Assembly: GCA_944358455.1 (NCBI GenBank)
Contig: CALVRE010000042.1
Location: 299-64,298, forward strand
Length of the DNA stretch: 64,000 nt
Direction: 5' to 3'
Source: an uncultured Bacilli bacterium
GTDB lineage: Bacteria > Bacillota_I > Bacilli_A > RF39 > UBA660
Shown: positions 10,466-44,637 of the stretch, piece by piece
Numbering within the stretch: the stretch's first letter is position 1
Layout of the letters: every line of letters starts with the position of its first letter
Translations under genes and position numbers: made by a program
The notes under the pieces: model-generated
Database searches by the model: none
The model's input: only the letters and a program-made list of their open reading frames with translations
Told to the model about the DNA's origin: nothing

Positions 10466-11458
10466 TTAATTTTCTGCTTCTTCTAACATGTTAGTAATGA
10501 AGATCCCATAGCCACGAGTTGGTGTATCTACTACTACGTGAGTTACAGCTCCTACTAAGTATTCGTCTTGTAGAATTGGACTTCCACTCATTCCTTGAAT
10601 AATTCCACCTGTTGTATTCAATAATTCTTGGTCGGTTATTTCAAACGAAATATTCTTCGTTGTCCCTTTTTGATTAATTCTGGTAATATTAATTTCATAT
10701 TCTTTGATTTCCGTACCATTTAATACCGTTCGAATCATAGCTTTTCCGGTTTTTACTTCATTTGGTTCGGCTACTTTATAAAGTTCTGTCTCAGGAAGTT
10801 CTTGTGTGTAGTTACCAAATATTCCGTGTTCGGTATTTTCAAAGACGTCACCTTGAATACGGTTCGAGTAATATTTCGCGTTTTTTTCTCCTGGTTCTCC
10901 ATTTTCACTTTTTTGAATTCCGGTTACTTCTGAATCATAGATTTTACCATCTTTAATCTCTAAAATTCTACCAGTTGTTTTTTCTAATATTTCATGCCCA
11001 AGAGCACCAAATAATTTCGTATTGGGATCGATATAAGTTAAGGTACCAATTCCCGTAATACTATCTTTGACATACAATCCTGTTTTATAGACGTTGTTTT
11101 CATCCTTATAAATTTTAAGAGTTGTGTTCAGAGTTTCATCATTTCGTTTATAACCTATTTCGATGGTTTCATCCGTATTTGCAGCATTTATTTTAGAGAC
11201 CATTTCACTAATCGTGCTGATGTTATCTCCATTGATACTAATAATCGTGTCTCCTACTTTTAATCCTGCATCTTTACCCGGATATTCGTCGTTTACTTTG
11301 TATAATCCAACGACTAAGACACCATCTGCGTGAAGTTCAATTCCGATGTTTTCGCCACCAGGAATGACGTAATCTGAATAAGCGAATACAAAACTTGGCA
11401 TACTAATTAATGCAAGAAGAGTAATACATGACGTTTTTAAAAATTTTTTAAAAGTCAC
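10466..11458 (-). CDS. spoIVB: SpoIVB peptidase (S55) with PDZ domain
   Basis: The signal peptide is followed by a PDZ domain (GLKVGDTIISINGDNI). GTLTYIDPNTKLFGALGH carries the catalytic His and GGIIQGMSGSPI the catalytic Ser. Confidence 0.85.
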   Translation of the reverse strand: MTFKKFLKTSCITLLALISMPSFVFAYSDYVIPGGENIGIELHADGVLVVGLYKVNDEYPGKDAGLKVGDTIISINGDNISTISEMVSKINAANTDETIEIGYKRNDETLNTTLKIYKDENNVYKTGLYVKDSITGIGTLTYIDPNTKLFGALGHEILEKTTGRILEIKDGKIYDSEVTGIQKSENGEPGEKNAKYYSNRIQGDVFENTEHGIFGNYTQELPETELYKVAEPNEVKTGKAMIRTVLNGTEIKEYEINITRINQKGTTKNISFEITDQELLNTTGGIIQGMSGSPILQDEYLVGAVTHVVVDTPTRGYGIFITNMLEEAEN

Positions 11459-14845: not shown

Positions 14846-15232
14846 TTATAGATATTTTTCTCCTTCTCCGCGATAGATCATGACGACATTCCAAATTCGA
14901 ACATAAATACTCATGACGGCAAAGGCGATCCAACCAAATATTGGAACAATCAAGCATAAAATCCATACATAAGGAGATAAATACAGTTCTTTTCCTGGAA
15001 CATTTAACTTTGCAGACACTTGGCAAGTAATCTGCAACATAAAGACCGATAGCATGATAACTGCTGGAAAGAAGCAACAAAGTACTCCAATTACCCAATA
15101 ATACCATTTCGCGTACCATGCATCTTTATCATAAACATTTAATAAGGCTCCTAACACTAGATCTCCTGCTCCATGTCCGAAAAGTAGCAATAGTAGCCAT
15201 ATCCACCAATTTTCACGTTTTAATATCGACAT
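14846..15232 (-). CDS. Hypothetical polytopic membrane protein
   Basis: RBS AGGAGGG. Preferred over the overlapping Cys/Arg-rich ORF 14742..15119, which looks spurious. Confidence 0.5.
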   Translation of the reverse strand: MSILKRENWWIWLLLLLFGHGAGDLVLGALLNVYDKDAWYAKWYYWVIGVLCCFFPAVIMLSVFMLQITCQVSAKLNVPGKELYLSPYVWILCLIVPIFGWIAFAVMSIYVRIWNVVMIYRGEGEKYL

Positions 15233-18979: not shown

Positions 18980-19957
18980 ATGAAAAAAATTCTAACAAGT
19001 TGTGGTATTATGATTGTTCTGCTCTTTATCGTTGTCGAGATTTTAACAGAATCTAGTACGATTTTAGAGAGTGTAAAATTTTCCTTTTCCATTTGGACGA
19101 ACAACATTTTTCCTTCTTTATTTCCTTTTTTTGTGTTGTCCGAAATACTCGTTAACTATGGTTTTATCGAACTTGTTGGAGAACTTTTTAAACCTTTCAT
19201 GTATTCTCTTTTTCGCGTGAAAGGTGAATGTGCTTTTATTTTCATCATGAGTATTATATCAGGTTTTCCTTCAAATGCCAAATACACGAGAGAGCTCTAT
19301 TTAAACGGAACTCTAAACAAAGAAGAGGCCTCGAAGATTCTTACTTTCACCCATTTTTCTAACCCGCTATTTATTTTAGGAACTATTTCGCTTCTCTTTT
19401 TAAATAATAAAGAAGCAGGACTATTAATTCTACTTTGTCATTATGGAACAAATCTTATTATTGGTCTTATTTTTCGTAATTTTTATCCTAGTCCAAAAGA
19501 ACATGAAAAGGTATCTTTGAAGCGAGCTATTTTAAATATGCATCAAAAAAGAATTCACAATCAACAATCGTTTGGAACGATTATGACGAATTCTCTCGTG
19601 AATAGTATCAATACATTGTTACTGATTTTAGGTGTTGTTACGGTTTTCTTAGTCATTACGACGATCATTGGTAACAATTTACATATCGGTAGTTACTATC
19701 AAAGTGTTTTAAATGGTTTCTTCGAAATGACGCAGGGATTAAAATATGTGAGTATTTTAGGAATTCCTCTGAAGTTAAAGGCGGTTCTTTCGACGATGAT
19801 CATATCGTTCGGAGGACTCAGTGTTCATATGCAAATGATGAGCATTCTAAGCGATACCAAAATTTCTTATTTTCCATTTTTAACGGCTCGTATCATGCAT
19901 GCCACCATCGCTTCCATGCTCGTTTATTTTCTCTTCGACTTTTGGATCATGCTTTAG
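18980..19957 (+). CDS. ylbJ: Sporulation integral membrane protein YlbJ (nucleoside-recognition domain)
   Basis: A polytopic protein with a YlbJ-like sequence. Its position next to ylbL matches the Bacillus arrangement. The start was set at MKKIL, with RBS AGGTGA. Confidence 0.65.
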   Translation: MKKILTSCGIMIVLLFIVVEILTESSTILESVKFSFSIWTNNIFPSLFPFFVLSEILVNYGFIELVGELFKPFMYSLFRVKGECAFIFIMSIISGFPSNAKYTRELYLNGTLNKEEASKILTFTHFSNPLFILGTISLLFLNNKEAGLLILLCHYGTNLIIGLIFRNFYPSPKEHEKVSLKRAILNMHQKRIHNQQSFGTIMTNSLVNSINTLLLILGVVTVFLVITTIIGNNLHIGSYYQSVLNGFFEMTQGLKYVSILGIPLKLKAVLSTMIISFGGLSVHMQMMSILSDTKISYFPFLTARIMHATIASMLVYFLFDFWIML

Positions 19958-20454
19958 CCGATCGTCGTAAAATTACTATTGTATTGATAAACGGCGGTTA
20001 CACCAAAGTTACCTTCTAATAAACGGTTAGTTACAGGAATTACAATTTTAATCATTGAATCGTATTGGGCAGGAGAAACATCAGGAACGGTTTCCGTTGA
20101 TACAACAAAATCACCAAAGCTGCTACCATCTACCAACTTGGTCGCATAATCACCATACTCAAATAAATTTTGATCTTTATCGATTCTTAAGGTGGTGGTG
20201 GAAGTATCATCGAAAGAAAACGTAATACAATTATCGCCACAATTTGTAAATGATGTAATCGTTTTGCTACGAAAATCATCGTATATTTTCTGTGTCATAA
20301 TCGCTTGTTTGTTGAGTAGTGCTGATTTGATTCCATTGTTAACATACATTTCTCTTAGTGAAATAATAATTTGAAATAAAAAGATTACGATTACCATTAC
20401 TAAACTAAATGATACCACTAGTTCCACTACTGTAAAGCCATTTTTCTTTTTCAT
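19954..20454 (-). CDS. Prepilin-type N-terminal cleavage/methylation domain protein (minor pseudopilin, ComGD/GspH-like)
   Basis: The N-terminus MKKKNGFTVVELVV has the G-F-T-x-x-E prepilin motif. Confidence 0.75.
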   Translation of the reverse strand: MKKKNGFTVVELVVSFSLVMVIVIFLFQIIISLREMYVNNGIKSALLNKQAIMTQKIYDDFRSKTITSFTNCGDNCITFSFDDTSTTTLRIDKDQNLFEYGDYATKLVDGSSFGDFVVSTETVPDVSPAQYDSMIKIVIPVTNRLLEGNFGVTAVYQYNSNFTTIG

Positions 20455-20463
20455 AGTTACCTC

Positions 20464-20973
20464 CTAATAAATTTTTATCGTCGCAAACGTTCCATCTTCC
20501 ATTTCGACTACTAAGCGGTATTTTAATAGTTCATCATCGTATTTGATATATTCGATAAAGCGTTTCATCGACTCAGAAATATCATCTATACTATCGAATA
20601 CACTTTGTACATAGGTCGTATTTTCATCGATAAAGAGAATGGTTTTGATCTCTAAGACTTCTTTTAATCGACGACAATAATCAGTTTCATTAACATAAGA
20701 AGTTGGACAATCTGACAAATCGATATATTTCATTTTATCGTTACGAAAGGTTTCTGCCATGGATATAAAATTGTCTTGCATGTAAAACTTTTTCATATTC
20801 TCTGCCGCATACAGAGCGTTTACGGTATTATATTTAAAAGTCGTCTGATACCCTTGATTGACATTTCGAAATTGAATAAACAAGAAAACCAACGTTCCTA
20901 AAATAAAGGTGGCAGCGATCAAAGTCTCAGCTAACATGAACCCTTTACTTTTATTTTTTTTCATAAACTTCAT
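20464..20973 (-). CDS. Prepilin-type pseudopilin
   Basis: The N-terminus KGFMLAETLIA is followed by a hydrophobic helix. Confidence 0.7.
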   Translation of the reverse strand: MKFMKKNKSKGFMLAETLIAATFILGTLVFLFIQFRNVNQGYQTTFKYNTVNALYAAENMKKFYMQDNFISMAETFRNDKMKYIDLSDCPTSYVNETDYCRRLKEVLEIKTILFIDENTTYVQSVFDSIDDISESMKRFIEYIKYDDELLKYRLVVEMEDGTFATIKIY

Positions 20974-21060
20974 CTCCCTATGTTGAATTTATTCTGAATA
21001 TATTATATAATACATTTAGGATAAATGCTAGTCAAAAATGAATAAAAGGGGATGAATATT

Positions 21061-22383
21061 ATGCTAAGAGTATTTGATTTTGAAAAGATGCCAGTTGTTG
21101 AAATTGTCAACGATATTATGGTCGATGCATCGAAACGTGGAGCAAGTGATATCCACTTTGATCCGTTAGAAAAATTTATGAAAATTAGAATTCGTATCGA
21201 TGGAATTCTAATTGACTATGCAGAAGTTCCTAACACAATTAAAAAGAATTTAATTACACGTATCAAGATTATTTCTAATATGAATATCACAGAAACACGT
21301 CTACCACAAGATGGTGCGATCAAGGCTACTCTTCAAGATACCAATCTCGATCTTCGTGTCTCTTGCTTACCTACTAGTCAAGGAGAAAAGATCGTTATTC
21401 GTATTTTGGACTATACGATGAGTTTATCTGGTATCGAGGAATTAGGATTCAGCGATGTCAACTATCAAAAAGTATTAAAAATGATTTCGGTACCAAATGG
21501 AATTGTGCTCGTCACTGGTGCGACTGGTACTGGTAAATCGACGACTGTCTACTCTATTTTGCAACGTTTAAATAAAGAGGAAACAAATATTATCACGGTT
21601 GAGGATCCGATCGAAATGGATATTGAAGGAATCAATCAGGTACAAACAAATAGTGAAATTGGACTTACTTTTGCAACCGCTCTTCGTTCGATCTTACGTC
21701 AAGACCCAAACATCATCATGATCGGAGAAATTCGTGATACCGAAACAGCAAAAATTGCCGTTCGTGCTTCTATCACAGGACACTTAGTATTATCGACGAT
21801 CCACACCAATAACTCTTTAAATACAATCGAACGTCTACTGGATATGGATGTAGAGCGTTATTTGTTATCAAGTGCTTTAACAGGTATCATTTCTCAAAAA
21901 TTAGCTCGTATGCTATGTCCTCATTGCCGTACGAAACGTAAAACAAATGATTATGAAAAAAATCTTTTAAAACAAGTAATTGGTCATTCCGTCGATGAAG
22001 TTTATACAGCAGAAGGTTGTGAAGTATGTGGAAATGGTTATCACGGACGTATCGCGATTCAAGAAGTACTTCTCATCAATCAAGAAATTCGTGATGCAAT
22101 CAGTAATAACTTACCAAAAGAAAAATTACGCGAACTTGTCTATCGTTCCGATGTAACAACACTACTTCAGGATGGATTACAAAAAGTAATCGATGGATAT
22201 ACAACATTTGAAGAAGTCCTAAAATTGATCGAATTAGATGACGATGAAAACATTATCGAAGGAAAGTTGGATTTAAAAGAAGCATTAAAGATGACGGATA
22301 TTGCGAAACATGCTCAAGAGCAAAATCAAACATTAGAACCAAAGCCTCTCGATCCTAAACCAATTATAGGACCAGTTGATTAA
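21061..22383 (+). CDS. Type II/IV secretion ATPase (GspE/PilB/ComGA family)
   Basis: Walker A VTGATGTGKSTT, an Asp box and His box, and a C-terminal tetracysteine (CPHC...CEVCG). The start was set at MLRVF after the RBS AGGGGA. Confidence 0.85.
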   Translation: MLRVFDFEKMPVVEIVNDIMVDASKRGASDIHFDPLEKFMKIRIRIDGILIDYAEVPNTIKKNLITRIKIISNMNITETRLPQDGAIKATLQDTNLDLRVSCLPTSQGEKIVIRILDYTMSLSGIEELGFSDVNYQKVLKMISVPNGIVLVTGATGTGKSTTVYSILQRLNKEETNIITVEDPIEMDIEGINQVQTNSEIGLTFATALRSILRQDPNIIMIGEIRDTETAKIAVRASITGHLVLSTIHTNNSLNTIERLLDMDVERYLLSSALTGIISQKLARMLCPHCRTKRKTNDYEKNLLKQVIGHSVDEVYTAEGCEVCGNGYHGRIAIQEVLLINQEIRDAISNNLPKEKLRELVYRSDVTTLLQDGLQKVIDGYTTFEEVLKLIELDDDENIIEGKLDLKEALKMTDIAKHAQEQNQTLEPKPLDPKPIIGPVD

Positions 22384-30696: not shown

Positions 30697-30728
30697 CAAA
30701 AAAGGAAAGTTTTCACTTTCCTTTTTAT
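30696..30728. terminator. Bidirectional Rho-independent terminator
   Basis: AAAGGAAAGT-TTTC-ACTTTCCTTT with A- and T-runs on both sides. Confidence 0.55.
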
Positions 30729-30733
30729 CTAGT

Positions 30734-31939
30734 CTACGGTTCATATCCATACAAATCATACAATTCATCTAAAGCACATTGTACGGTTTCACAAGTTGTA
30801 TATCCTAAGCTATTGTCATATGCTGTGATTCTGGCATGTGGCGTTGCGACCATCGTAACTTCTACACTTTTACTACTAACATGTCCTGCTGCATCGGTTA
30901 CCCAGAAATAAACGGTTCCATTTTCTTTTGCCGTATAAGTATAAGTTTGTTCAGATGTTGTTGCGCTAACATTCGTAAAGGTATTCGGTTGATTATTTGT
31001 GGTTGTCCAAGCATAACCGGTAATACCACTTTGACTATCGATCACTTTTGCCGTTACAGTATTGGTTAATCCTAATGTTGTTTGAGCAGTAAGACTTGAA
31101 ATAACAGGTGGCGTTTTATCTAATTGATAATGCATACTATTAACATTCGAACAGATTTCTGTCGTATGTGGCGTTTTTGCATTATCTGTTGCGGTTATAC
31201 AAATTGCATATTTGCCATCATTTTGAATTGCTACAATAGTTCCACTTGGATCAGCATCAGTCGTTGGTGTGCAGGTGGAATTCGTGGTTAAGCAATATTT
31301 AAATTCGGTTATTGCTACATCATCTGTTGCGCTTATTTGAACATTAAAATTTTCCGTTTTCCAAATGCTATCCGGCTCTGGATTAAACGTGATTGTTGGT
31401 GGCGTAATATCGATATACACATCACCAAAAATAAAGTTAAACTCAGCTGAATATGTTGTAGAGGATGTACCATTATTCTTAATTACAAGTGTAATAGTAA
31501 CACTTTCACCTGCTGGTATTTCATCGATTCCCACTTTATAATCGGTAATTTCATATGTAATGTTACCATTTAATTCATCACGAATCTCTTCGATCAATTT
31601 ATTATTACTACTATTATTTGTAATCGTAATCTTATAAGTAATCGTAGCATTTTGATTTGGCAATACCCCTTTACTAACTAATAAATCATGACTATATTGA
31701 TAATTTCCGTTCTCATAAGCACCATTCGATAGAATTGGCCCTTCGACATTCGTAATTCGAATATCTCGATCTGGTCTTATTTCAGTATTTGTTCCAATAC
31801 TAAGAACTCGAGAAAGTAAAGAAAAACCAATGGTTAAACTAAATAAAAATAACAACAGCAGAAAAACAAGAACTACTTTTCTGGTTCTCGAAGAATAATA
31901 AAAAGAATCTTTCCACTTGTTTCTCTTATAATTTTTCAT
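30734..31939 (-). CDS. Secreted or surface Thr/Asn-rich protein with a SipW-cognate-like signal peptide and Ig-like repeats (TapA-like accessory candidate)
   Basis: A hydrophobic N-terminus is followed by FSLLSRVLSIGTNTE, a cleavage-region motif shared with the two TasA-like proteins. The start was set at MKNYK, with RBS GGGTG. Confidence 0.6.
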   Translation of the reverse strand: MKNYKRNKWKDSFYYSSRTRKVVLVFLLLLFLFSLTIGFSLLSRVLSIGTNTEIRPDRDIRITNVEGPILSNGAYENGNYQYSHDLLVSKGVLPNQNATITYKITITNNSSNNKLIEEIRDELNGNITYEITDYKVGIDEIPAGESVTITLVIKNNGTSSTTYSAEFNFIFGDVYIDITPPTITFNPEPDSIWKTENFNVQISATDDVAITEFKYCLTTNSTCTPTTDADPSGTIVAIQNDGKYAICITATDNAKTPHTTEICSNVNSMHYQLDKTPPVISSLTAQTTLGLTNTVTAKVIDSQSGITGYAWTTTNNQPNTFTNVSATTSEQTYTYTAKENGTVYFWVTDAAGHVSSKSVEVTMVATPHARITAYDNSLGYTTCETVQCALDELYDLYGYEP

Positions 31940-32039
31940 TTCCAACACCCGATTATTATGTATCTTTACTATTCATATTTTACCTTATTTTTCCATTTTT
32001 ATCAACACCAGATGACATAAAAAGTACATTTCTATAAAA

Positions 32040-32069
32040 TAAAAAGAAAGTAACTTTCACTTTCTTTTT
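32040..32069 (-). terminator. Rho-independent terminator after the bitopic-protein gene
   Basis: AAAGAAAGT-loop-ACTTTCTTT followed by a T-run. Its sequence is similar to the hairpin at 30700. Confidence 0.5.
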
Positions 32070-33081
32070 ATTTTAATATATATTGATAGATAATATTTTC
32101 ATCTACAATTATAAAGATACTTGAATTTTTCTTTCGGTAATGTAAAATTGGTTTTTCGACATTTTCTCGTGCATCCATCAACTCTTCGAAAGATGATACT
32201 ACCACTACCTGCTTTCCTTCTGTAGATGGAAGTACTTTTGTTTCTACAATCGCACGATCATAATGTTTTTGAATTTTATCTAATTCGATTCGATAATGTC
32301 CTTTCGCTTTCTTCTCTTCTTCGATCATGCGAACAAGAGCAAGAACAACGAAGATTTCTAGTAAAATTCCTACCCAGAAAAAGAAGAAAAAGACAATATT
32401 CGTTATTTCTAATTGATTTTCCTCTTCCACAATAGAAGATTGATTGATATCTTTATATTGCATTCCTACTTGAATCGTCTGTTCTGTCAAAGGGATCTTC
32501 ATCTCTAAAGATTCATTTTTAATAACAGGATTTTTAAATTCGTCATATCCTGTCGTAATATGGATATTCAACTTTACTTGTAAATAACTATCTAAAGATA
32601 AGGCATAATCACTTTTAAATTCACTAATAATTTGATTATATTGATCATAATCAATTTGTACATCATCTGATATCGTAAAACTTTGTGCATGATCAACCTG
32701 TTGTTGTTGTAAATCTTTTAAAACATAATCCTTTTGATATAGTATTTGACTTTCATTTCCAGGCTCATGAGCAATGACAGTACCCGTAATATCATAAGAA
32801 TAATTCATATCGACATTCTTATCGGTATAATATGTATAATGAAAATTTACTGCAATGTAATCAATCAAACTTGCAATATATTGTCGTCCGGCCGGAAGAT
32901 AATCCTCCTCGAAATAATCGTTTTCCTTTAAATAGACATAATAGTCAATTTTACTTTGTTCTTGTACTTCTAATTGTCTTATATCAGCAAAACTAATACT
33001 TTCTTTCAAACAAAATATCGATACGATCAATACAGCTATAAATAAGAGAATACATGACCCTTTCTTAATAATTTTCTTCAT
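32068..33081 (-). CDS. Bitopic membrane protein (N-terminal signal-anchor, large extracytoplasmic domain, C-terminal TM helix plus ~90-aa cytoplasmic tail); hypothetical
   Basis: The start was set at MKKIIKK with RBS GGAGG. It is translationally close to the upstream peptidase gene. Confidence 0.55.
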   Translation of the reverse strand: MKKIIKKGSCILLFIAVLIVSIFCLKESISFADIRQLEVQEQSKIDYYVYLKENDYFEEDYLPAGRQYIASLIDYIAVNFHYTYYTDKNVDMNYSYDITGTVIAHEPGNESQILYQKDYVLKDLQQQQVDHAQSFTISDDVQIDYDQYNQIISEFKSDYALSLDSYLQVKLNIHITTGYDEFKNPVIKNESLEMKIPLTEQTIQVGMQYKDINQSSIVEEENQLEITNIVFFFFFWVGILLEIFVVLALVRMIEEEKKAKGHYRIELDKIQKHYDRAIVETKVLPSTEGKQVVVVSSFEELMDARENVEKPILHYRKKNSSIFIIVDENIIYQYILK

Positions 33082-33085
33082 ATGT

Positions 33086-34225
33086 TTACCTCCATTCACT
33101 TAACCAGACGCTTGGATATCCAATCGCAGGAATTCTCAATCTTGCAACGCCTATAATATCTTTTTCATAAATGACCATTGCATCTATATCGTCGTTATTA
33201 TCACCTTTGGTTCGATAAGTATAATTTCCATCTTGAGAGTCATTTTTTTGGACAACGCGGTGAACAATAACCCGATTATCATTACGATACACCAAAACAT
33301 CTCCCACTTCTATTTCATCTTTCTCTTTATCTGTCAGCTTATCTACAATAACGACATCGCCTCTTTTAATGTTCGGACTCATCGATGGCGATACGATCGC
33401 TAAAAAGTAATATTTAAAGAAACCACTCGTTAAAAGAATGACCACTATGACCAATATCCCAAAACATGCATTCACAATCATTCTTCCAGGATGCTTTGAT
33501 TCCCTAACAAAAAACATTCGTTCTTTCTTCGTCGCCCTATAAATTAATAAACAAACGATAAAAGGAAAAACTATCTCTAATATACTGGTTAAATAATTTC
33601 CTAAGTTCGGATAAATCGGCACCATATAAATTGGCAATTCCGTCAACAAGCGAAACCAAATGACCGATTTCCAAGAAATGTGATACATTAAAAAAGTAAA
33701 CGCTATATTTTTAGCAATACTAGGTAAAATAATTAAACTAATATTATCGATGATAGCATTGATATCATGTCCAAGTGGAAATGCTCCTCTAGCATCAAAT
33801 AAAATCAAAAATAATACTAATAAAGTTAACACAATCTTTTCGTGAGATCCATTCTTATATTTCGATACCACTTCATAACGTAATAACTCTTCTGCAACAA
33901 TCACTAATATTACAGGCAAAATATTTTGAAGTATAGTCAGAAAATCCAAACTATAAACGGTTCTAGCATATCCAGTAAAAATACCTAACACATAGACAAT
34001 GACAAAATAACATATCACATAACTAATCAAACTAAAGTTAATATCTAACGTTTTTTCCGACTTATCTTTTTCAAAGCCTTTTAGCAACACTATGACAATA
34101 AAGAAGATCGTCAAAAAAACAAATCCTAACAGTTGATTCGAAATAAAACGAAACAAAAAATTATTGCAAAGAATCAAAATAATTGCAATCAATTCAATTA
34201 AAACGATTTTTTGGTACTCCCTCAT
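33086..34225 (-). CDS. Fusion protein: CPBP (CAAX/Abi-type) intramembrane metalloprotease domain plus C-terminal type I signal peptidase (S26, SipW-like)
   Basis: The N-terminal ~270 aa is polytopic with EELLRYE (EExxxR) and FLMYH (FxxxH) CPBP motifs. The C-terminus has SPSMSP (catalytic Ser box), RGDVV, HRVV and GDNN S26 boxes. Confidence 0.7.
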   Translation of the reverse strand: MREYQKIVLIELIAIILILCNNFLFRFISNQLLGFVFLTIFFIVIVLLKGFEKDKSEKTLDINFSLISYVICYFVIVYVLGIFTGYARTVYSLDFLTILQNILPVILVIVAEELLRYEVVSKYKNGSHEKIVLTLLVLFLILFDARGAFPLGHDINAIIDNISLIILPSIAKNIAFTFLMYHISWKSVIWFRLLTELPIYMVPIYPNLGNYLTSILEIVFPFIVCLLIYRATKKERMFFVRESKHPGRMIVNACFGILVIVVILLTSGFFKYYFLAIVSPSMSPNIKRGDVVIVDKLTDKEKDEIEVGDVLVYRNDNRVIVHRVVQKNDSQDGNYTYRTKGDNNDDIDAMVIYEKDIIGVARLRIPAIGYPSVWLSEWR

Positions 34226-34337
34226 TCACATCACCAATCAATATTGTCGTTACTATATTTTATATTATAATATATTCTTTTGTTTTTATCAAGAATATCT
34301 ATCACAAAATTTACTTTTTGCAATATTAAAACAAAAA

Positions 34338-34357
34338 AAGAGAGACATAACTCTCTT
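34338..34357. terminator. Bidirectional terminator after TasA-like paralog B
   Basis: AAGAGAGA-CATAA-CTCTCTT with A- and T-runs. Confidence 0.5.
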
Positions 34358-34359
34358 TT

Positions 34360-34938
34360 TTAAGCTTGAACATAAGTGATTGTTGCACCAGAACCATTAA
34401 CTGTTACATCAGCCGTAGGTAACTGAGTTGCAGTATCTTTATAGGTAACTGTTAATTTAACTGTTTTGGTTTCGTCAGCATTTAACGTATCATTTTGAGC
34501 AATAGCAGTTCCGCCATCTACATATGTTAATGTATACTCATATGAAGTTTCTACTAAAGTTTCATCTGCGTCTTTAGTGTCTCCACTTCCAGTAAATGTA
34601 GGCGTCTTAGGAGAATAAGTACCAATCTTGGCATTGATTTCTCCATCATTTACGATATCGAACGTATAACTAACAGAATCTCCTGGAGCTTTTAACACAA
34701 CACCAGTTAAAGTTACAGTAGTATTATCTAAGCTAATACTACCTTTGTCAGCAGTACCAGTTACTTCTCCTGCACTGGCATTTTCAAAGTGAACATTCCA
34801 GCTCGCATTTAAAGATTGTACAGTAGAATCTGTATTAATATTTAATACTTGTGATAATGCTGCATAACCTAGTGTTACTCCTCCTATTGCGATAATCAAC
34901 GCAGCGATCGCTATTGTTCTTAGTGTTTTGCTTTCCAT
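34360..34938 (-). CDS. TasA/camelysin (M73)-like secreted protein, paralog B
   Basis: The signal peptide ends in GYAALSQVLNINTD. VVLKAPGDSVSYTFDIVNDGEI resembles the TasA motif LKPGD..F.F.N.GSL. RBS is GGAGGA. Confidence 0.65.
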   Translation of the reverse strand: MESKTLRTIAIAALIIAIGGVTLGYAALSQVLNINTDSTVQSLNASWNVHFENASAGEVTGTADKGSISLDNTTVTLTGVVLKAPGDSVSYTFDIVNDGEINAKIGTYSPKTPTFTGSGDTKDADETLVETSYEYTLTYVDGGTAIAQNDTLNADETKTVKLTVTYKDTATQLPTADVTVNGSGATITYVQA

Positions 34939-35175
34939 ATAAACTATTTCCTCCTCACTTCTAATTTTTATAACACCACTACTATGTTATACAATCTCAT
35001 TATAAAAAAATTTTTGATAAATTTCAATACTTTTTTTACTTTTTTCGACATATTATGCATTTCTATGGTCAATAAAGCTTTAAAAATCAACGGAAATTGA
35101 TATCCAACAAAAAATTCAAAATGCTACCAAAAGTAAAAAAATTGAGCAAAATTTGAATCATAGGAAATCTTTCTT

Positions 35176-35210
35176 ATAAAAAAGAAAGAGAACCACCATT
35201 CACTCTTTCT
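35176..35210 (-). terminator. Rho-independent terminator after TasA-like paralog A
   Basis: AGAAAGAG-loop-CTCTTTCT with a T-run on the minus strand. Confidence 0.55.
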
Positions 35211-35229
35211 CTATGTGTATTACATTTAT

Positions 35230-35805
35230 TTATGCTTGTACATACGTGATAATGACACCTGATCCGTCGATATTAACATCGTTTGTAGGTTCGAAATCAC
35301 CTTTTAGTTGATATGTGATCGTCAGCTTTAAAGTTTTTCTTTCGCCCTCATTTAAAACGTCTGACACGGTAAGTGGTGTTCCATCTTCATACGTTAATAT
35401 ATACTGATAGGCATCTCTTACGATTGCTTCATCTACTTCCGATGTCTCACCAAAACCTGTGAAACTTGGATTCTTATAATCGATATTTCCGATTTTCGCA
35501 TCCAAATTTCCATCATTTACGACTTCAAATGTATATGTAACAGAATCTCCAACATTTTTTAGAATAACGCCGTTTAACGTTATGTTAGTGGCATTTAATG
35601 TTAAGATTCCTTTCTCTGCATTTCCCGTAATGATTCCATTGCTTGCGTTTTCAAAATGAATATTCCACTTTGTATCTGGCGTTTGAACATAAGAATTTGC
35701 CTCCACTTTCAATATCTGAGAAAGTGCGGCATAACTGATTGACAATGCTCCAATGGCAAGTATGAGTGCTGATACAGCAATTGTTCTTAATGTGTTCTTT
35801 TTCAT
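35230..35805 (-). CDS. TasA/camelysin (M73)-like secreted protein, paralog A
   Basis: The signal peptide ends in SYAALSQILKVEAN. VILKNVGDSVTYTFEVVNDGNL is the same TasA-like motif. The start was set at MKKNT with RBS AGGAGGG; the gene is monocistronic with its own terminator. Confidence 0.65.
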   Translation of the reverse strand: MKKNTLRTIAVSALILAIGALSISYAALSQILKVEANSYVQTPDTKWNIHFENASNGIITGNAEKGILTLNATNITLNGVILKNVGDSVTYTFEVVNDGNLDAKIGNIDYKNPSFTGFGETSEVDEAIVRDAYQYILTYEDGTPLTVSDVLNEGERKTLKLTITYQLKGDFEPTNDVNIDGSGVIITYVQA

Positions 35806-35865: not shown

Positions 35866-35903
35866 CAAAAAAACACAAAAAAAGGGAACTAATACTAGTT
35901 CCC
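35866..35903 (-). terminator. Rho-independent terminator, candidate end of the comE transcript
   Basis: GGGAACTAGTATTAGTTCCC followed by TTTTTTTGTGTTTTTTT on the minus strand. Confidence 0.5.
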
Positions 35904-36214: not shown

Positions 36215-38299
36215 TTATGGTATACAAGTTTTCATTTCTAATTTTTTATGTTTAATTTTAAACATCATACTACCGTTTAAATCAGTTCTATAAATCATAG
36301 AGTTAGAGAGATTTTCTAGTACTTTATCATGAGGATGACCATACCAATTGTTTTTTCCTACTGATATAATGGAATATTTTGGATGAATACTACTTATAAA
36401 TTCTTCACTGGAACTTGTCTTACTCCCGTGATGTCCCACTTTCAATATGTCTATATCCGTAAGATCATATTTTTTTAAAATATCCTCTTCTACCTCTATT
36501 CCTGCATCTCCCATGAATAGCATTTTAACTCCATTATAATCAAAATATAATACATTAGAATTATCATTTTCATTATCGTATAATTTGTGATTTAAAAAAT
36601 ATATCTTGTGCCCCTTTAAATTTAATTCTTTGATGTTTTGACAATACTCAATCCTTTTTTCGTCTAGTATTTTTATTAGTTCTTGTTCTAACTCGTTATA
36701 ACCATCTGGATTAAAAATTACTTTTTCGATCGGGAAATGGTTTACTAAATAAAACGCTTCCCCCATATGATCGAAATCGCCATGAGTGAAAAGAAGAAAA
36801 TCAAGTTTTTGAATTCCTCTCGACTTCAAATAAGGAATTAACGTATTTTTGCTGATATTGTAATCATAGTCTTCCAAATTCATTAAATTTCCCCCTGTAT
36901 CAATCAGAATATTTCCTCGATTATACGGAAGTTCCATCAAGATCGCATCTCCTTGTCCTACATCTAATACGGTTACTACCACATAGTTGCGAAAATACGG
37001 CATCATATATAAAATAGCCAGTAAAACTGGTAATAATAGCATTCTTCTTTTTCGATAATGATAGATTCCAATGATGATCCATATCAAACTAGCGATTAAT
37101 ATACCTAAAAAGACAAACGATGGTTTCATAAAGGAAATCGTGAATAAAGAATAAGAGGATAATCGTTGCGATAGCGTTTCTAAAATAGAAATTAACACGT
37201 GATAGATTTTTCCTAGTGGCGCAAATAACAAGACAAAAAAAGAAAGTGGGAATAATAAATAGGTCACGTATGGAACAAAAAACAAGTTATAAATAGGCGT
37301 TAGAAAAGTCAGTTCAAAATTATAAGTAAGAGAGATGGGAATCCCTGTCAAAAAGGCAAGCAGAGAAATCAACCATAATTTTCGAAAATATCCTTTTTGT
37401 TCTTTTAAATAACGATTGCCATAGATGAGTACAAACGATATAGTAAAACTATAAAGAAAACCCAAATGATATACATAATAAGGATTATAGAAAAGTAAAC
37501 AAGAAATAACGAACATCAACAAATAAATGGTGTCGATTTTTAAATGAACAATCTTTCGTAATGTCAAAAGATAAAATAATAAAAGTGCTCTTAAAATAGA
37601 GGGAGAAAAACCAGTTACGAATGAATAAAATAATAAAATGATACTAACGATTGCATAATTTCTCTTTTTGTCTTTCCAAAAGCGATTTAAAATGGCAAGA
37701 ATGGTCGTTGCCATAAACGTAATATGCATTCCGGAAACGGAAAATAGATGACTGATGCCATTATGCTGATAACTATCTAATACATCTTCCTTAATATCAC
37801 TGCTATCTCCTAATAATAGATATTTTAAATAATCGGCGTGTTCTTTGGTATCAAAATAATCATTGATTTTTCCTTTCCAATCGTAAAGTAACGAATGATT
37901 CTTGTTTACTAAACGAATATCGGTAGGTACTAGTTGATAATAAATTTTTTTACTCAATAAGTAGTTACGGTAATTAAATAACCCAAAGGTACGATTCGTA
38001 GATGGTAATTTCAAAGTTCCTTCCACTTCGATTTGATCTCCTACTTCATAATCGAATGGTTCATAGATTGTCATAATGACTTTTTCTTTTCCTTTTATTT
38101 CGACTGTCGTTCGATCTTCTTGATTTTTCAAGGATACGATCGTTCCGATTATTTTTATTTCTCCTTCGTGATAAGAAGAAAAAATGATTTTTCCTTTGAC
38201 CACCCAAAAAGAATATACGAATGAGACAAAAAGAAGAAAAAGATAAAATTTCTTAGATTGTAATATAATCTTTAAGTTTTTCAAATGTACTATCGCCAA
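36215..38299 (-). CDS. comEC: DNA internalization competence protein ComEC/Rec2 (with metallo-beta-lactamase domain)
   Basis: An N-terminal OB/DUF4131 region and polytopic competence domain are followed by a C-terminal MBL fold (VLDVGQGDAIL, HGDFDHMG). Confidence 0.9.
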   Translation of the reverse strand: MAIVHLKNLKIILQSKKFYLFLLFVSFVYSFWVVKGKIIFSSYHEGEIKIIGTIVSLKNQEDRTTVEIKGKEKVIMTIYEPFDYEVGDQIEVEGTLKLPSTNRTFGLFNYRNYLLSKKIYYQLVPTDIRLVNKNHSLLYDWKGKINDYFDTKEHADYLKYLLLGDSSDIKEDVLDSYQHNGISHLFSVSGMHITFMATTILAILNRFWKDKKRNYAIVSIILLFYSFVTGFSPSILRALLLFYLLTLRKIVHLKIDTIYLLMFVISCLLFYNPYYVYHLGFLYSFTISFVLIYGNRYLKEQKGYFRKLWLISLLAFLTGIPISLTYNFELTFLTPIYNLFFVPYVTYLLFPLSFFVLLFAPLGKIYHVLISILETLSQRLSSYSLFTISFMKPSFVFLGILIASLIWIIIGIYHYRKRRMLLLPVLLAILYMMPYFRNYVVVTVLDVGQGDAILMELPYNRGNILIDTGGNLMNLEDYDYNISKNTLIPYLKSRGIQKLDFLLFTHGDFDHMGEAFYLVNHFPIEKVIFNPDGYNELEQELIKILDEKRIEYCQNIKELNLKGHKIYFLNHKLYDNENDNSNVLYFDYNGVKMLFMGDAGIEVEEDILKKYDLTDIDILKVGHHGSKTSSSEEFISSIHPKYSIISVGKNNWYGHPHDKVLENLSNSMIYRTDLNGSMMFKIKHKKLEMKTCIP

Positions 38300-38822
38300 T
38301 TCCTTTTACGTTTTTTAACTCATCGATCGAATTAAAATTACCATTCTCTTGTCTATAATCGATAATTGCTTGTGCTTTTACTTCACCAATTCCTGGTAAC
38401 GTCAGCAACTCCTGTAATGTTGCTCGATTTAAAGAGATTTTGGTGTTTGTATTTTCAGCAGAAGGTTCATTCGTCTCGACATGATTTTGATCGATACAAC
38501 CATCATTTTCGATTGTGGGGCATATACATTCTTTTTCAATATATTTAATAGCTGTATTCCCTTCCTCAAACTGGCGGATTTCATCTTTTGTATAGATAAT
38601 AATTACCATTTCATCTTCTAAAAGCTTGCTTAAATTGATCATCGATGTATCCGCATCGACATTTAATCCTCCGCTTTTTTCAATTACATCTTGGACACGA
38701 CTTCCCGCCTCTAATTCATATAATCCTGGCTTTACAATAGCACCTTTGATGTCAACTTTGATGGTTGTTTGTTCATCTGTCGTAGGTTGCTCCACTGGTT
38801 TTACAGTTAGTTCCTCTTGCAC
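38253..38822 (-). CDS. comEA: ComEA DNA receptor (SLBB plus tandem HhH), missing its membrane anchor; the anchor lies upstream in the same frame (38871-38951) and is separated by an in-frame TGA
   Basis: The SLBB motif is IVKPGLYELEAGSRVQDVIEKSGG and the HhH motifs are LPGIGEVKAQAII and VKGIGDSTFEKL. The listed start is a GTG. The upstream fragment encodes MKIILSWWDQYRYKWYVLGIVVVFILS* and has the RBS AAGGAG. Confidence 0.75.
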   Translation of the reverse strand: MQEELTVKPVEQPTTDEQTTIKVDIKGAIVKPGLYELEAGSRVQDVIEKSGGLNVDADTSMINLSKLLEDEMVIIIYTKDEIRQFEEGNTAIKYIEKECICPTIENDGCIDQNHVETNEPSAENTNTKISLNRATLQELLTLPGIGEVKAQAIIDYRQENGNFNSIDELKNVKGIGDSTFEKLKDYITI

Positions 38823-43128: not shown

Positions 43129-44505
43129 TTATATTTCATATGGACTATGATAAGTCCCATTTCCTCCCTTTATAGTTACTGTTGGAGAAATAACTAATAC
43201 AGGACGAATTCCATAAGTGGAAGATACACTATTGTAATCGGTCGTACTATCTCTTATTACATACCAAGAATATGAAGCGTTCACCTTGGTCAAGGTCCAA
43301 CTATAAGTCATACGATCAGAACCTGACACGGAGTCACTAGGTGCTGCATACATCTCACCAATTCGTATCGTTCCTACCTTCGATGAAAAGATATCGGTTC
43401 CAGTATCATCGAGTGCTATACTATAATGTTTCCCATAATCAAATGATCGTCCATGATTCCATGTTATCGCTGCCACTTTGGCTTGATTTGCAGCACTTAC
43501 TAACTCATTCAAAACACTTCCATCTTGCAAAGATGTTAACATATTACGATAATTCATAGCCTCTGATACATATCCATCTAATACCATCTTTGTGCCTTCC
43601 ATTGTTTTCTCCATCACTCGATAAAGTTTACCATCTAATTTTACATATTCTCCACTCGTTGCAATATTTCTAAGTATTATACTTCCTTTCGATTTTTCTA
43701 TTTGATATGGATCCGTTTTTGTTCCACTTCCACTTTCCATTATCAAATCAGATGAAATGGTAATGATCGGACGAATACCACCAGCTCCTATTACACTAAA
43801 AGTCGTAGCATTGGTATTGGCACGTCCACTCCAACCACGAGTCGTACTTGTATTAGGTGTTAAAGTATACCAAACATCGATTTCCGAATCTCTCAAATAA
43901 GAATTGCTCCCCGCCAAATTAAATTCATCTAGCGACATCAATATAATCATAGCATTGCCTTCCGAAGTACAAGTTGTCCTAGCAGAACTGGAATCATCAG
44001 TCACATCTTTACAGTAAGACGTCATTTGTAATTGATTCTGTAAACTACTTTCTAAATGTCGATAGAAATAATCATTTAACCATTCATAAGCATGACTTGT
44101 TTCAAAGACATTTGATGTATCATCATATGAAATTATCGTAATATTTCCTTCACTAATTAATCGTACATTCCCATTCTCATCTTTTCCCATTATACGATAT
44201 AAGTTTCCTGATAGCCAAATATAATTGTTATCTTGGGTATTTTTTAAATAAGTTCCATCCATATATGTATAAGTTTCACTACTTGCTAATAAATCATCGA
44301 CAATCGTTCCGATAGGACCAATACTACGATTGGCTAACGTATATAATTCATCAATTGCTCCTTGAATATCTATCTCTTCCGTTCCACTATTACTATTATC
44401 GTATCCTACTTCTATGGCATCATACAAGGTTGTCACGGCATAAGTCGTCGTACTTGTAAACAGTATCAAAACAACAATCAATCCTATGAATCTCCATTTC
44501 TTCAT
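43129..44505 (-). CDS. Secreted protein with two tandem copies of a ~200-aa domain ending G(I/V)RP(I/V)..IS...I..G.GT..(S/D)PY.I
   Basis: A signal peptide is present. The start was set at MKKWRF with RBS AGGAG. The internal duplication was seen by eye. Confidence 0.55.
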   Translation of the reverse strand: MKKWRFIGLIVVLILFTSTTTYAVTTLYDAIEVGYDNSNSGTEEIDIQGAIDELYTLANRSIGPIGTIVDDLLASSETYTYMDGTYLKNTQDNNYIWLSGNLYRIMGKDENGNVRLISEGNITIISYDDTSNVFETSHAYEWLNDYFYRHLESSLQNQLQMTSYCKDVTDDSSSARTTCTSEGNAMIILMSLDEFNLAGSNSYLRDSEIDVWYTLTPNTSTTRGWSGRANTNATTFSVIGAGGIRPIITISSDLIMESGSGTKTDPYQIEKSKGSIILRNIATSGEYVKLDGKLYRVMEKTMEGTKMVLDGYVSEAMNYRNMLTSLQDGSVLNELVSAANQAKVAAITWNHGRSFDYGKHYSIALDDTGTDIFSSKVGTIRIGEMYAAPSDSVSGSDRMTYSWTLTKVNASYSWYVIRDSTTDYNSVSSTYGIRPVLVISPTVTIKGGNGTYHSPYEI

Positions 44506-44637
44506 ATTGAACTCCTTCCAACAAAAAAAGAGGGGGTAAATATTTACCCCCCCCGTGTGCATACTGCACACTCATTTTATTATTTTATTCTGTTCTCATT
44601 TTAACAGATTTAGTTTCTCTTTGCAAGTATTTTATCA

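Follow-up and report, generated by a model that had tools for sequence, protein, structure and literature searches.

A conserved N-terminal motif in an uncultured Bacilli bacterium as the predicted cut site and donor strand of a probable TasA-superfamily fibre

On the minus strand of a contig from an uncultured Bacilli bacterium (GTDB group UBA660; GenBank assembly GCA_944358455.1, contig CALVRE010000042.1), five co-oriented genes lie at positions 30734–35805 of the 64-kb stretch of DNA that was analysed as a whole (hereafter, the window), in the order A, B, peptidase, DUF5305, and C. A and B are paralogs, C is a larger protein, and all three share a short motif that follows the hydrophobic part of the N-terminus and is the subject of this study. 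The genes and the three copies of the motif are as follows (↓, predicted cut; related loci are denoted by L and a number).

35230..35805, minus strand: pilin-like paralog A, 191 aa, recognised by its open reading frame (ORF), its ribosome-binding site, and a local hidden Markov model (HMM) from family alignment A1 (E = 1e-73)
34360..34938, minus strand: pilin-like paralog B, 192 aa, start at 34938
33086..34225, minus strand: polytopic type I signal peptidase (SPase I), 379 aa, recognised by TIGR02228, Pfam S24/S26, conserved boxes, and hydropathy
32068..33099, minus strand: DUF5305 membrane protein, 343 aa from GTG, PF17231 at E = 4e-18
30734..31939, minus strand: protein C, 401 aa from ATG
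35698..35739, minus strand: motif in A, ISYA↓ALSQILKVEA, a predicted cut at -3..-1 and then the putative start of a donor strand, in register with the fibre subunit AbpX
34831..34872, minus strand: motif in B, LGYA↓ALSQVLNINT, the 14-residue stretch that is best conserved across the family
31790..31831, minus strand: motif in C, IGFS↓LLSRVLSIGT, kept in the C family and in the proteins at the matching downstream position in L008/9 and L027–L030

The start of A is ATG 35805, which is preceded by AGGAGG, whereas the alternative TTG 35856 upstream lacks a ribosome-binding site. The length of C is counted from ATG 31939, with an alternative GTG start at 31948 in the ORF listing, and the DUF5305 reading frame overlaps the 3' end of the peptidase gene, with a likely start at ATG 33081. 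The predicted signal peptides of A and B each comprise residues 1–26 (35728–35805 for A), leaving predicted mature proteins of 165 aa for A (isoelectric point (pI) 4.29, 13.9% Asp plus Glu) and 166 aa for B (pI 4.07, 12.7% Asp plus Glu). C has a long signal peptide or anchor with a predicted cut at S40↓L41, a diverged pilin-like domain (residues ~60–173), two Ig/PKD-like domains (182–263 and 270–361), and a conserved C-terminal tail, YDNS...C..VQCALDELY.

The motif had been reported in a sequence-only reading of this DNA, and the three N-termini given there, MKKNTLRTIAVSALILAIGALSISYAALSQILKVEANSY for A, MESKTLRTIAIAALIIAIGGVTLGYAALSQVLNINTDST for B, and ...LFLFSLTIGFSLLSRVLSIGTNTEIR for C, agreed letter for letter with our translations. 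The pattern [AGS][YFW][AS]x[LFVI][ST]xx[LVI]x[IV], scanned in all six frames of the window, matched the ORFs of A, B, and C only, compared to a chance expectation of ~0.07 from composition and a mean of 0.11 over 500 shuffles, none of which (0/500) reached three matches. This pattern was written after A, B, and C had been seen, and the stronger support is the recurrence of the motif at other loci, where it was found at orthologous positions in every related locus examined. In addition, because A and B are paralogs with 53% identity, their agreement is trivial, and only the match in C is informative.

The other exported proteins of the window have ordinary signal peptides, as exemplified by ...SFVFA↓YSD at 10466–11458, and among 720 ORFs of the related loci nearly every N-terminal match to the motif also matched the pilin HMM. 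The exceptions are two matches inside membrane proteins (L011 16064–18346 and window 14846–15232) and three N-terminal matches in L015 and L016, for which the pilin-HMM matches are listed under different or overlapping ORFs. Within the available data, the motif is therefore not a general feature of unrelated exported proteins; such a general occurrence had been named in the sequence-only reading as fatal to its proposal. With three matches against ~0.1 expected in the window, the rival explanations of a signal-peptide style common to the whole organism or of resemblance by chance are already refuted in these data and retain virtually no probability. The type IV (class III) prepilin pattern, which consists of a short basic leader, a G↓F/M cut, and Glu at +5, was absent from A, B, and C.

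The sharing of the motif by three proteins, as first reported, is thus real, but it is not limited to the signal peptide. Comparison of the C family with the A/B family by hhalign (98.2%, E = 3.5e-14) aligned residues 22–161 of C with positions 7–171 of the pilins, motif on motif. Since the whole N-terminal domain of C aligns with the pilins, the likeness of the motif reflects homology. The relatives of C in the database (n = 6) conserve ...LTIG(Y/F)(S/G)↓(L/V)L(S/N)xVLSIxxDxAVRPDxDIRIT.

Within the A/B family, the motif is the best conserved part of the protein. In A1, an alignment of 25 family sequences, the invariant positions include Ala26, Leu32, and Trp47, and the 14-residue window around the motif shows the highest conservation, with a mean top-residue frequency of 0.72 compared to 0.51 elsewhere. 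The family logo of 185 sequences, (T/S)(V/I)(A/G/V)(F/Y)A↓A(L/M/F)S(Q/T)xLxIxGxAxV, reads at the sequence level as a signal-peptidase site of the AXA type and, after it, a strand with one hydrophobic face. On the cut side, position -1 is Ala in 164 sequences and Gly or Ser in 21, -2 is always Phe, Tyr, or Trp, and -3 is Ala, Gly, or Val in 176. On the strand side, 172 sequences have Leu at +6 and 169 have Ile at +8, with hydrophobic residues at +2, +6, +8, +12, and +14; +2 is Leu in 126, Met in 27, and Phe in 25, and +4 is Gln in 85, Thr in 48, and Glu in 7.

A word-indexed search returned 49 relatives, from metagenomes and from metagenome-assembled genomes (MAGs) labelled 'Bacilli bacterium' or 'Candidatus Aphodocola', and an exhaustive profile search of cluster representatives (50% identity) gave 8602 matches at E <= 1e-3, 5318 at 1e-10, and 680 at 1e-30. 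Some of the weaker profile matches are giant DUF11-repeat proteins, aligned over the sandwich core only. The pilin profile matches 32–35 repeats in such giant surface proteins, at profile positions ~71–160 only, as well as one protein of three tandem pilin-like domains (the DUF11-repeat and tandem-domain matches are P0114, 4658 aa; P0157, 4825 aa; and P0199, 480 aa). Because the repeats match over the profile core, the sandwich core is related to DUF11-type repeats, and the matches counted at weak E-values give too large a figure for the pilin family. A search for related loci among GTDB representatives with A2, a trimmed alignment, found a best locus of 71% identity. One further member, a 167-aa protein with a perfect motif, VAYAALSQTLTINGTG (L022 3860–4363), is on a 4.5-kb contig binned as Candidatus Saccharibacteria, a placement that could result from mis-binning or horizontal transfer.

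The family logo can be aligned with the donor strand of a known fibre subunit. ALSQxLxIxGxAxV is in register with the donor strand of Pyrodictium AbpX, QWSETLSLSATIS, a strand seen by cryo-electron microscopy (cryo-EM). The hhalign comparison of A1 with the single AbpX sequence gave E = 3.1e-5 and a probability of 73% over 138 columns, placing LTYAQWSETLSLS on LGYAALSQVLNIN with correspondences at Ser3, Thr5, Leu6, and the hydrophobic residue at position 8. In the preprint supplement, the precursor of P. abyssi AbpX reads ...LALTAIGLTYA↓QWSETLSLSATISTGSLDV; in ...IGLTYA↓QWSETLSLSATISTG the mature protein starts with QWSE, and W2–I12 form the cryo-EM donor strand (bioRxiv 10.64898/2026.01.04.697558). 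Both families thus have a predicted cut after ...(T/G)YA, followed in one register by x-hydrophobic-S-(E/Q)-T-L-x-(L/I), and they share a mature size of ~165 aa, a low pI, and acidity (161 aa, pI 4.05, and 15% acidic residues in AbpX itself). In the fibre structure of TasA, the chain begins at A28, right after ...GGGTWA, and residues 28–38 are the donor strand.

These alignments suggest that the motif is probably the predicted cut site plus the donor strand of a fibre subunit, and mostly mature protein. The term 'signal-peptide C-region motif', used in the sequence-only reading, would hold for the first two or three residues (G/S, Y/F, A/S) but not for ALSQVLNI..., which is the predicted mature N-terminus by alignment with AbpX and TasA. 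The comparison drawn there with TasA, TapA, and CalY was apt, since TIGR04088, the model of the 'SipW-dependent-type signal peptide', matches residues 11–44 of TasA and likewise spans the cut site and extends into the donor strand at the mature N-terminus. This correction, namely that a conserved 'signal-peptide motif' is predicted to be mostly mature protein, is the main value of the present analysis relative to the earlier one. Because A, B, and C are homologous across the N-terminal domain, fibre assembly accounts for the conservation of the motif no less well than peptidase recognition does. The resulting sequence rule, (A/G/V)(F/Y)A↓A(L/M/F)SxxLxIxGxAxV preceded by a long hydrophobic stretch, would identify both subunits and likely peptidase substrates.

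If, alternatively, the motif were a signal-peptide C-region that serves peptidase recognition only, it would be removed by a cut after it (...LNI or ...INT). Such a role would fit the position of the motif next to the hydrophobic core, its co-occurrence with a peptidase gene in 10 loci (see below), and its conservation above the rest of the protein. However, the small -3/-1 residues are invariant only at (A/G/V)-(F/Y)-A, with no conserved AXA-like site further downstream, and the conservation runs on with the periodicity of a beta-strand to +14 and then to the invariant Trp at +21. In addition, the equivalent residues of AbpX and TasA are mature protein that forms the donor strand. We therefore regard recognition alone as a very improbable function of the motif.

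The predicted fold points in the same direction as the alignment with AbpX. The AlphaFold2 model of B (predicted local distance difference test (pLDDT) score, 87.5) consists of a transmembrane (TM) helix (residues 2–27), a disordered coil of low confidence (28–48), and a beta-sandwich. Foldseek comparison of this model with the PDB ranked AbpA (7ueg) first, followed by FimG and TasA (8aur), with moderate scores. The B model looks most like the fibre subunits of the TasA superfamily (thread, AbpA, and TasA): its jelly-roll or beta-sandwich resembles the solved members, and an amphipathic N-terminal extension begins at the predicted SPase I cut and is unstructured in the monomer model, as is the extension of AbpX. 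AbpX, Tafi, and CanA are also counted in this superfamily. Searches by sequence gave less. For A, B, and C, Pfam and NCBIfam yielded only sub-threshold DUF11-type matches (weak DUF11/CARDB-like), and TIGR04088, NF046066, and Pfam Peptidase_M73 gave no match, with the N-termini searched at E up to 10; TasA, as a control, scored 38 bits on TIGR04088 and 514 bits on NF046066. HMMER comparison of the family profile with PDB sequences gave nothing meaningful (best E, 0.14).

A, B, and C could also be cleaved by the operon peptidase and yet remain monomeric, as secreted or wall-associated proteins of an Ig-like or DUF11-like kind whose conserved N-terminus serves another interaction. The weak DUF11/CARDB-like Pfam matches, the matches of the profile core to DUF11 repeats in giant surface proteins, and the moderate fold-match scores to pilins are consistent with such proteins. 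However, donor-strand filament subunits consistently rank as the closest structural matches, the monomer model shows a disordered N-terminal extension like that of AbpX, the AbpX donor strand aligns in register, and the locus has the make-up of the described TasA-superfamily fibre loci. Monomeric proteins are thus an improbable outcome, if slightly less so than a motif for recognition alone.

In keeping with the SipW-type relationship proposed in the sequence-only reading, a SipW-like peptidase of the archaeal or endoplasmic reticulum (ER) type is encoded in the locus: it scores above the cutoff of TIGR02228 (80.6 bits; cutoff, 51.85), and the catalytic boxes SxSM, VHR, and GDNN are kept. On NF046067, the equivalog model of Bacillus SipW, it scores 63.6 against a cutoff of 190. 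The catalytic domain is formed by the last ~120 residues, with S281 (SPSM), H322 (VHR), and GDNN at G341–N344; the boxes are of the Ser/His rather than the Ser/Lys type and are kept in 6 orthologs. Residues 1–265 contain ~9 hydrophobic segments ahead of this domain, and the odd number of segments together with the basic N-terminus would place the catalytic domain outside the cell. The full-length architecture is common to at least 203 clusters. No Pfam family matched the polytopic N-terminal domain (residues 1–265) even at E up to 10, and a CPBP-like 'EELLR...FLMYH' seen by eye in this domain was dropped for that reason.

Motif proteins were found beside this type of peptidase at 10 independent loci, with the same outcome whether the search started from the small proteins or from the peptidase. 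In the pilin-based search, the order of one to three pilins, a peptidase of 376–393 aa, the DUF5305 protein, and a large protein with the C-type motif was found in the window and at L004/5, L008/9, L010, L011, and L016. Four peptidase homologs of 33–39% identity led to L027–L030, which showed the same order in 4/4 cases: one or two motif-bearing pilins directly upstream of the peptidase, DUF5305 directly downstream, and then the protein with the C-type motif. A DUF5305 gene adjoins the peptidase at all peptidase-bearing loci examined. L013 7613–11911, from an Erysipelotrichaceae MAG, has a DUF5305 gene with four pilin paralogs around it and no recognisable peptidase within 10 kb.

This arrangement resembles that of AbpX loci in archaea and Bacillota, which encode a ten-TM peptidase, a DUF5305 protein proposed as its accessory subunit, minor subunits, and tip proteins (bioRxiv 10.64898/2026.01.04.697558). 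The make-up is thus the same, with a polytopic SPase I (~10 TM segments there, ~9 here), DUF5305, extra subunits, and a tip-like protein. In the Tafi system, processing of TafA, the major subunit, has been shown genetically to require TafD, the peptidase of the cluster, and TafG is a DUF5305 protein. By analogy, the DUF5305 protein is proposed to be an accessory subunit of the peptidase, and the peptidase would cleave its motif-bearing neighbours, as suggested by the synteny and by the parallel with SipW and TafD. The idea of a dedicated SipW-type peptidase and its substrates, put forward in the sequence-only reading, therefore stands in so far as a SipW-like peptidase occurs with a family of cognate neighbours at 10 loci, but the motif had been misplaced, since alignment with AbpX and TasA predicts it to be mostly mature protein.

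In related MAGs, the signal, the motif, and the pilin module are also fused to adhesin-type domains (BspA-type leucine-rich repeat (LRR) LRR_5 and DUF6273). These fusions occur as multiple dispersed copies per genome, with six loci in one MAG, among housekeeping genes and often beside smc, and no peptidase was found within 10 kb of them. The adhesin-fusion loci are as follows.

L014: 9974–11323
L015: 3889–5073, 13119–14063, and 17342–18484
L017: 10001–11344
L018: 5288–6484
L019–L021 and L023

The hydrophobic region of 17–20 residues, the AlphaFold2 helix that extends through residue 27, and the many family members, adhesin fusions especially, that have no peptidase nearby would all be compatible with an uncleaved signal anchor. 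A, B, and C would then be type II surface proteins, the motif a strand beside the membrane, and the peptidase an enzyme for other substrates. However, the -3/-1 rule of small residues is kept in the 185 sequences, and TasA and AbpX, whose hydrophobic regions are equally long, nevertheless start right after the equivalent Ala, by structure or by design. Moreover, peptidase and pilins are syntenic in both search directions, and the equivalent peptidase of Tafi is required for processing. An uncleaved anchor is thus very unlikely.

These results suggest that the locus is likely to encode a donor-strand fibre of the TasA superfamily, closest to AbpX, with its own peptidase, a DUF5305 partner, and an adhesin-like subunit. 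Several points weigh against this assignment. Family genes without a peptidase within 10 kb are found at L001/L012, L006, L014, L015, and L017–L021. At +2, the A/B family has Leu, Met, or Phe in place of the conserved aromatic residue of AbpX, and at +4 Gln or Thr in place of its calcium-binding Glu; A and B themselves have L2 and Q4. The mature N-termini of the A/B family are predictions throughout, and even the AbpX cut site is a PrediSi prediction made for the design of a recombinant protein (bioRxiv 10.64898/2026.01.04.697558). Finally, beta-sandwiches are common, and the profile core also matches the DUF11 repeats of giant proteins.

In the proposed fibre, A and B would be small acidic pilin-like subunits, and C a larger subunit with the same starting module followed by Ig-like domains. 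The subunits would be exported by the Sec pathway, each with a long signal peptide whose last residues are (A/G/S)-(Y/F)-(A/S), and the polytopic Ser/His SPase I of the operon, probably with the DUF5305 protein, would cut after that residue. The cut would expose a new N-terminus, A/L-L-S-Q/R-x-L-x-I-x-G-x-A-x-V, and this amphipathic strand would enter the open beta-sandwich of the next subunit by donor-strand complementation, which would result in a polymer. C, bearing the same strand, would be able to enter the fibre or to nucleate it, with its distal domains on display.

Fibres of this type are already known (TasA/TapA/SipW, Tafi, and AbpX), and a peptidase dedicated to a particular set of substrates is likewise an established idea for TasA, Tafi, and AbpX; the A/B family would be a remote addition to them, so far unannotated and without the calcium-site residues of AbpX. 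It also lacks a Cys pair, in which it differs from AbpX, and the hhalign probability of only 73% suggests a separate, distant subfamily. Homologs of AbpX occur in Thermoproteota, Bacillota, and Chloroflexota (bioRxiv 10.64898/2026.01.04.697558).

The TasA–TapA–SipW system of Bacillus subtilis, to which CalY/camelysin is close, follows the same operon logic, with a fibre subunit, an accessory subunit, and a dedicated ER-type signal peptidase. Its donor strand likewise starts from the first mature residue, and TapA carries the donor-strand sequence of TasA. In contrast, the peptidase in the window spans the membrane with ~9 segments, where two are typical of prokaryotic SPase I, and is paired with a DUF5305 protein, and C is a homolog of the pilin domain, whereas the central domain of TapA has another beta-sandwich fold. 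A and B are not assigned directly to the TasA family, as hhalign against TasA gave a probability of 30% and aligned only the core motif PGDxxxxxFxxxNxG.

The Tafi system of haloarchaea, the Tat-fimbriae (TafA/C/E, TafD, and TafG), likewise has a dedicated SPase I needed for subunit processing and a DUF5305 gene in the cluster. It differs in its twin-arginine translocation (Tat) signals, which contrast with the Sec-type signals without a twin arginine found here, in TafD, which has four TM segments and two external domains, and in its archaeal hosts. The archaeal bundling pili (AbpA/AbpB) and the Sulfolobus threads (Saci_0406) provide the best structural matches to the B model. The donor strand of AbpA is N-terminal, right after the SPase I site (AMA↓TL), and AbpB is a large partner of multiple beta-domains that is proposed to supply the first strand and to act as an adhesin, the role suggested here for C. 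Conversely, no dedicated peptidase was found adjacent to the ABP operon, and sequence similarity to A/B was undetectable by HMMER. The chaperone-usher pilins (FimA/FimG/PapK/CfaB), which are among the top fold matches, also have an incomplete Ig-like fold that is completed by the N-terminal strand of a neighbour, but they belong to Gram-negative bacteria, depend on a chaperone in the periplasm and an usher in the outer membrane, and lack a dedicated signal peptidase. Their likeness to A/B is one of analogy, and no evidence of relatedness was obtained here.

A broader proposition, which we consider possible but rather unlikely, is that the TasA superfamily has a very large branch, as yet unannotated and centred on the A/B family, among the uncultured Bacilli, Erysipelotrichaceae, and Mycoplasmatota-affiliated lineages associated with the gut. 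The module would then be a handle for surface display with calcium-independent docking, and the peptidase with the DUF5305 protein would serve for assembly as well as for processing. Under this proposition, the replacement of the aromatic and acidic residues by Leu2 and Gln4 would imply that strand docking does not depend on calcium. The unit of signal, donor strand, and pilin domain would be found fused to BspA-type LRR, DUF6273, Listeria-Bacteroides repeats, and DUF285, in several dispersed copies per genome. Independently of this broader proposition, if the likely reading of the locus as a donor-strand fibre is right, many uncultured gut Firmicutes have a TasA/AbpX-type surface fibre with exchangeable adhesin-bearing subunits, unrecognised by the Pfam and NCBIfam models in our searches, which would bear on their surface attachment and biofilm building.

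The AlphaFold2 model of C (pLDDT, 80) shows a long helix (residues 17–46), a gap, and three beta domains (60–173, 182–263, and 270–361), of which the distal ones resemble Ig, FN3, and PKD folds of a generic kind. The gene at the position of C in related loci encodes a larger protein with a similar N-terminus and adhesin-type repeats, as follows.

L008/L009: Listeria-Bacteroides repeats
L030: DUF285 and faint LRR matches
L029: a 918-aa protein

TapA and AbpB have been proposed as partners that share the donor strand, are able to start or cap the fibre, and carry distal domains. By analogy, C is a candidate tip, nucleator, or adhesin subunit.

A second motif, xYDNSxS...(V/I)QxA(L/I)DELY, is present in the C-terminal tail of C (ITAYDNSLGYTTCETVQCALDELYDLYG, window 30734–30830, minus strand). 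It also occurs after the signal anchor of a 480-aa DUF6273 protein encoded 11 kb away (VGYDNSNSGTEEIDIQGAIDELY, 43129–44571, minus strand) and after that of two paralogs just downstream of a related peptidase–DUF5305 locus (L027 10785–12788). The YDNS...DELY motif is covered by no Pfam family. The same 480-aa DUF6273 protein, with ...TTTYA↓VTTL, was considered as a fourth peptidase substrate and rejected, because it matched neither the pilin HMM nor the test pattern.

Three terminator-like hairpins were found on the minus strand by consensus scan.

35884..35903, minus strand: hairpin between a putative comEC and A, at the start of the locus
34334..34361, minus strand: hairpin of 11 pairs beginning at the stop codon of B, from the consensus scan only
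30699..30726, minus strand: hairpin 3' of C, at the end of the locus

The hairpin at 34334–34361 is possibly an attenuator that separates the pilin genes from the peptidase unit, and it may set a high expression ratio of pilins to machinery. Promoter-like sites in the locus (39) were no commoner than in shuffled sequence (36 ± 6), and no promoter is therefore claimed.

SLH or LPXTG anchors and cyclic di-GMP (c-di-GMP) or two-component genes are absent from the window locus, a further difference from the AbpX system. Downstream of the locus are genes for a UV-damage endonuclease and a DUF6512 protein. Directly upstream of A, ORFs at 36215–38822 (minus strand) resemble ComEC and ComEA, as named by eye. 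The window also carries a second, unrelated class of pilin signals, in two ComG-like pseudopilins at 19954–20454 and 20464–20973 (minus strand) with the classical prepilin motifs KGFTVVE and KGFMLAE. Beside them, a 443-aa ORF at 21052–22383 (plus strand) is a candidate GspE/ComGA-type ATPase.

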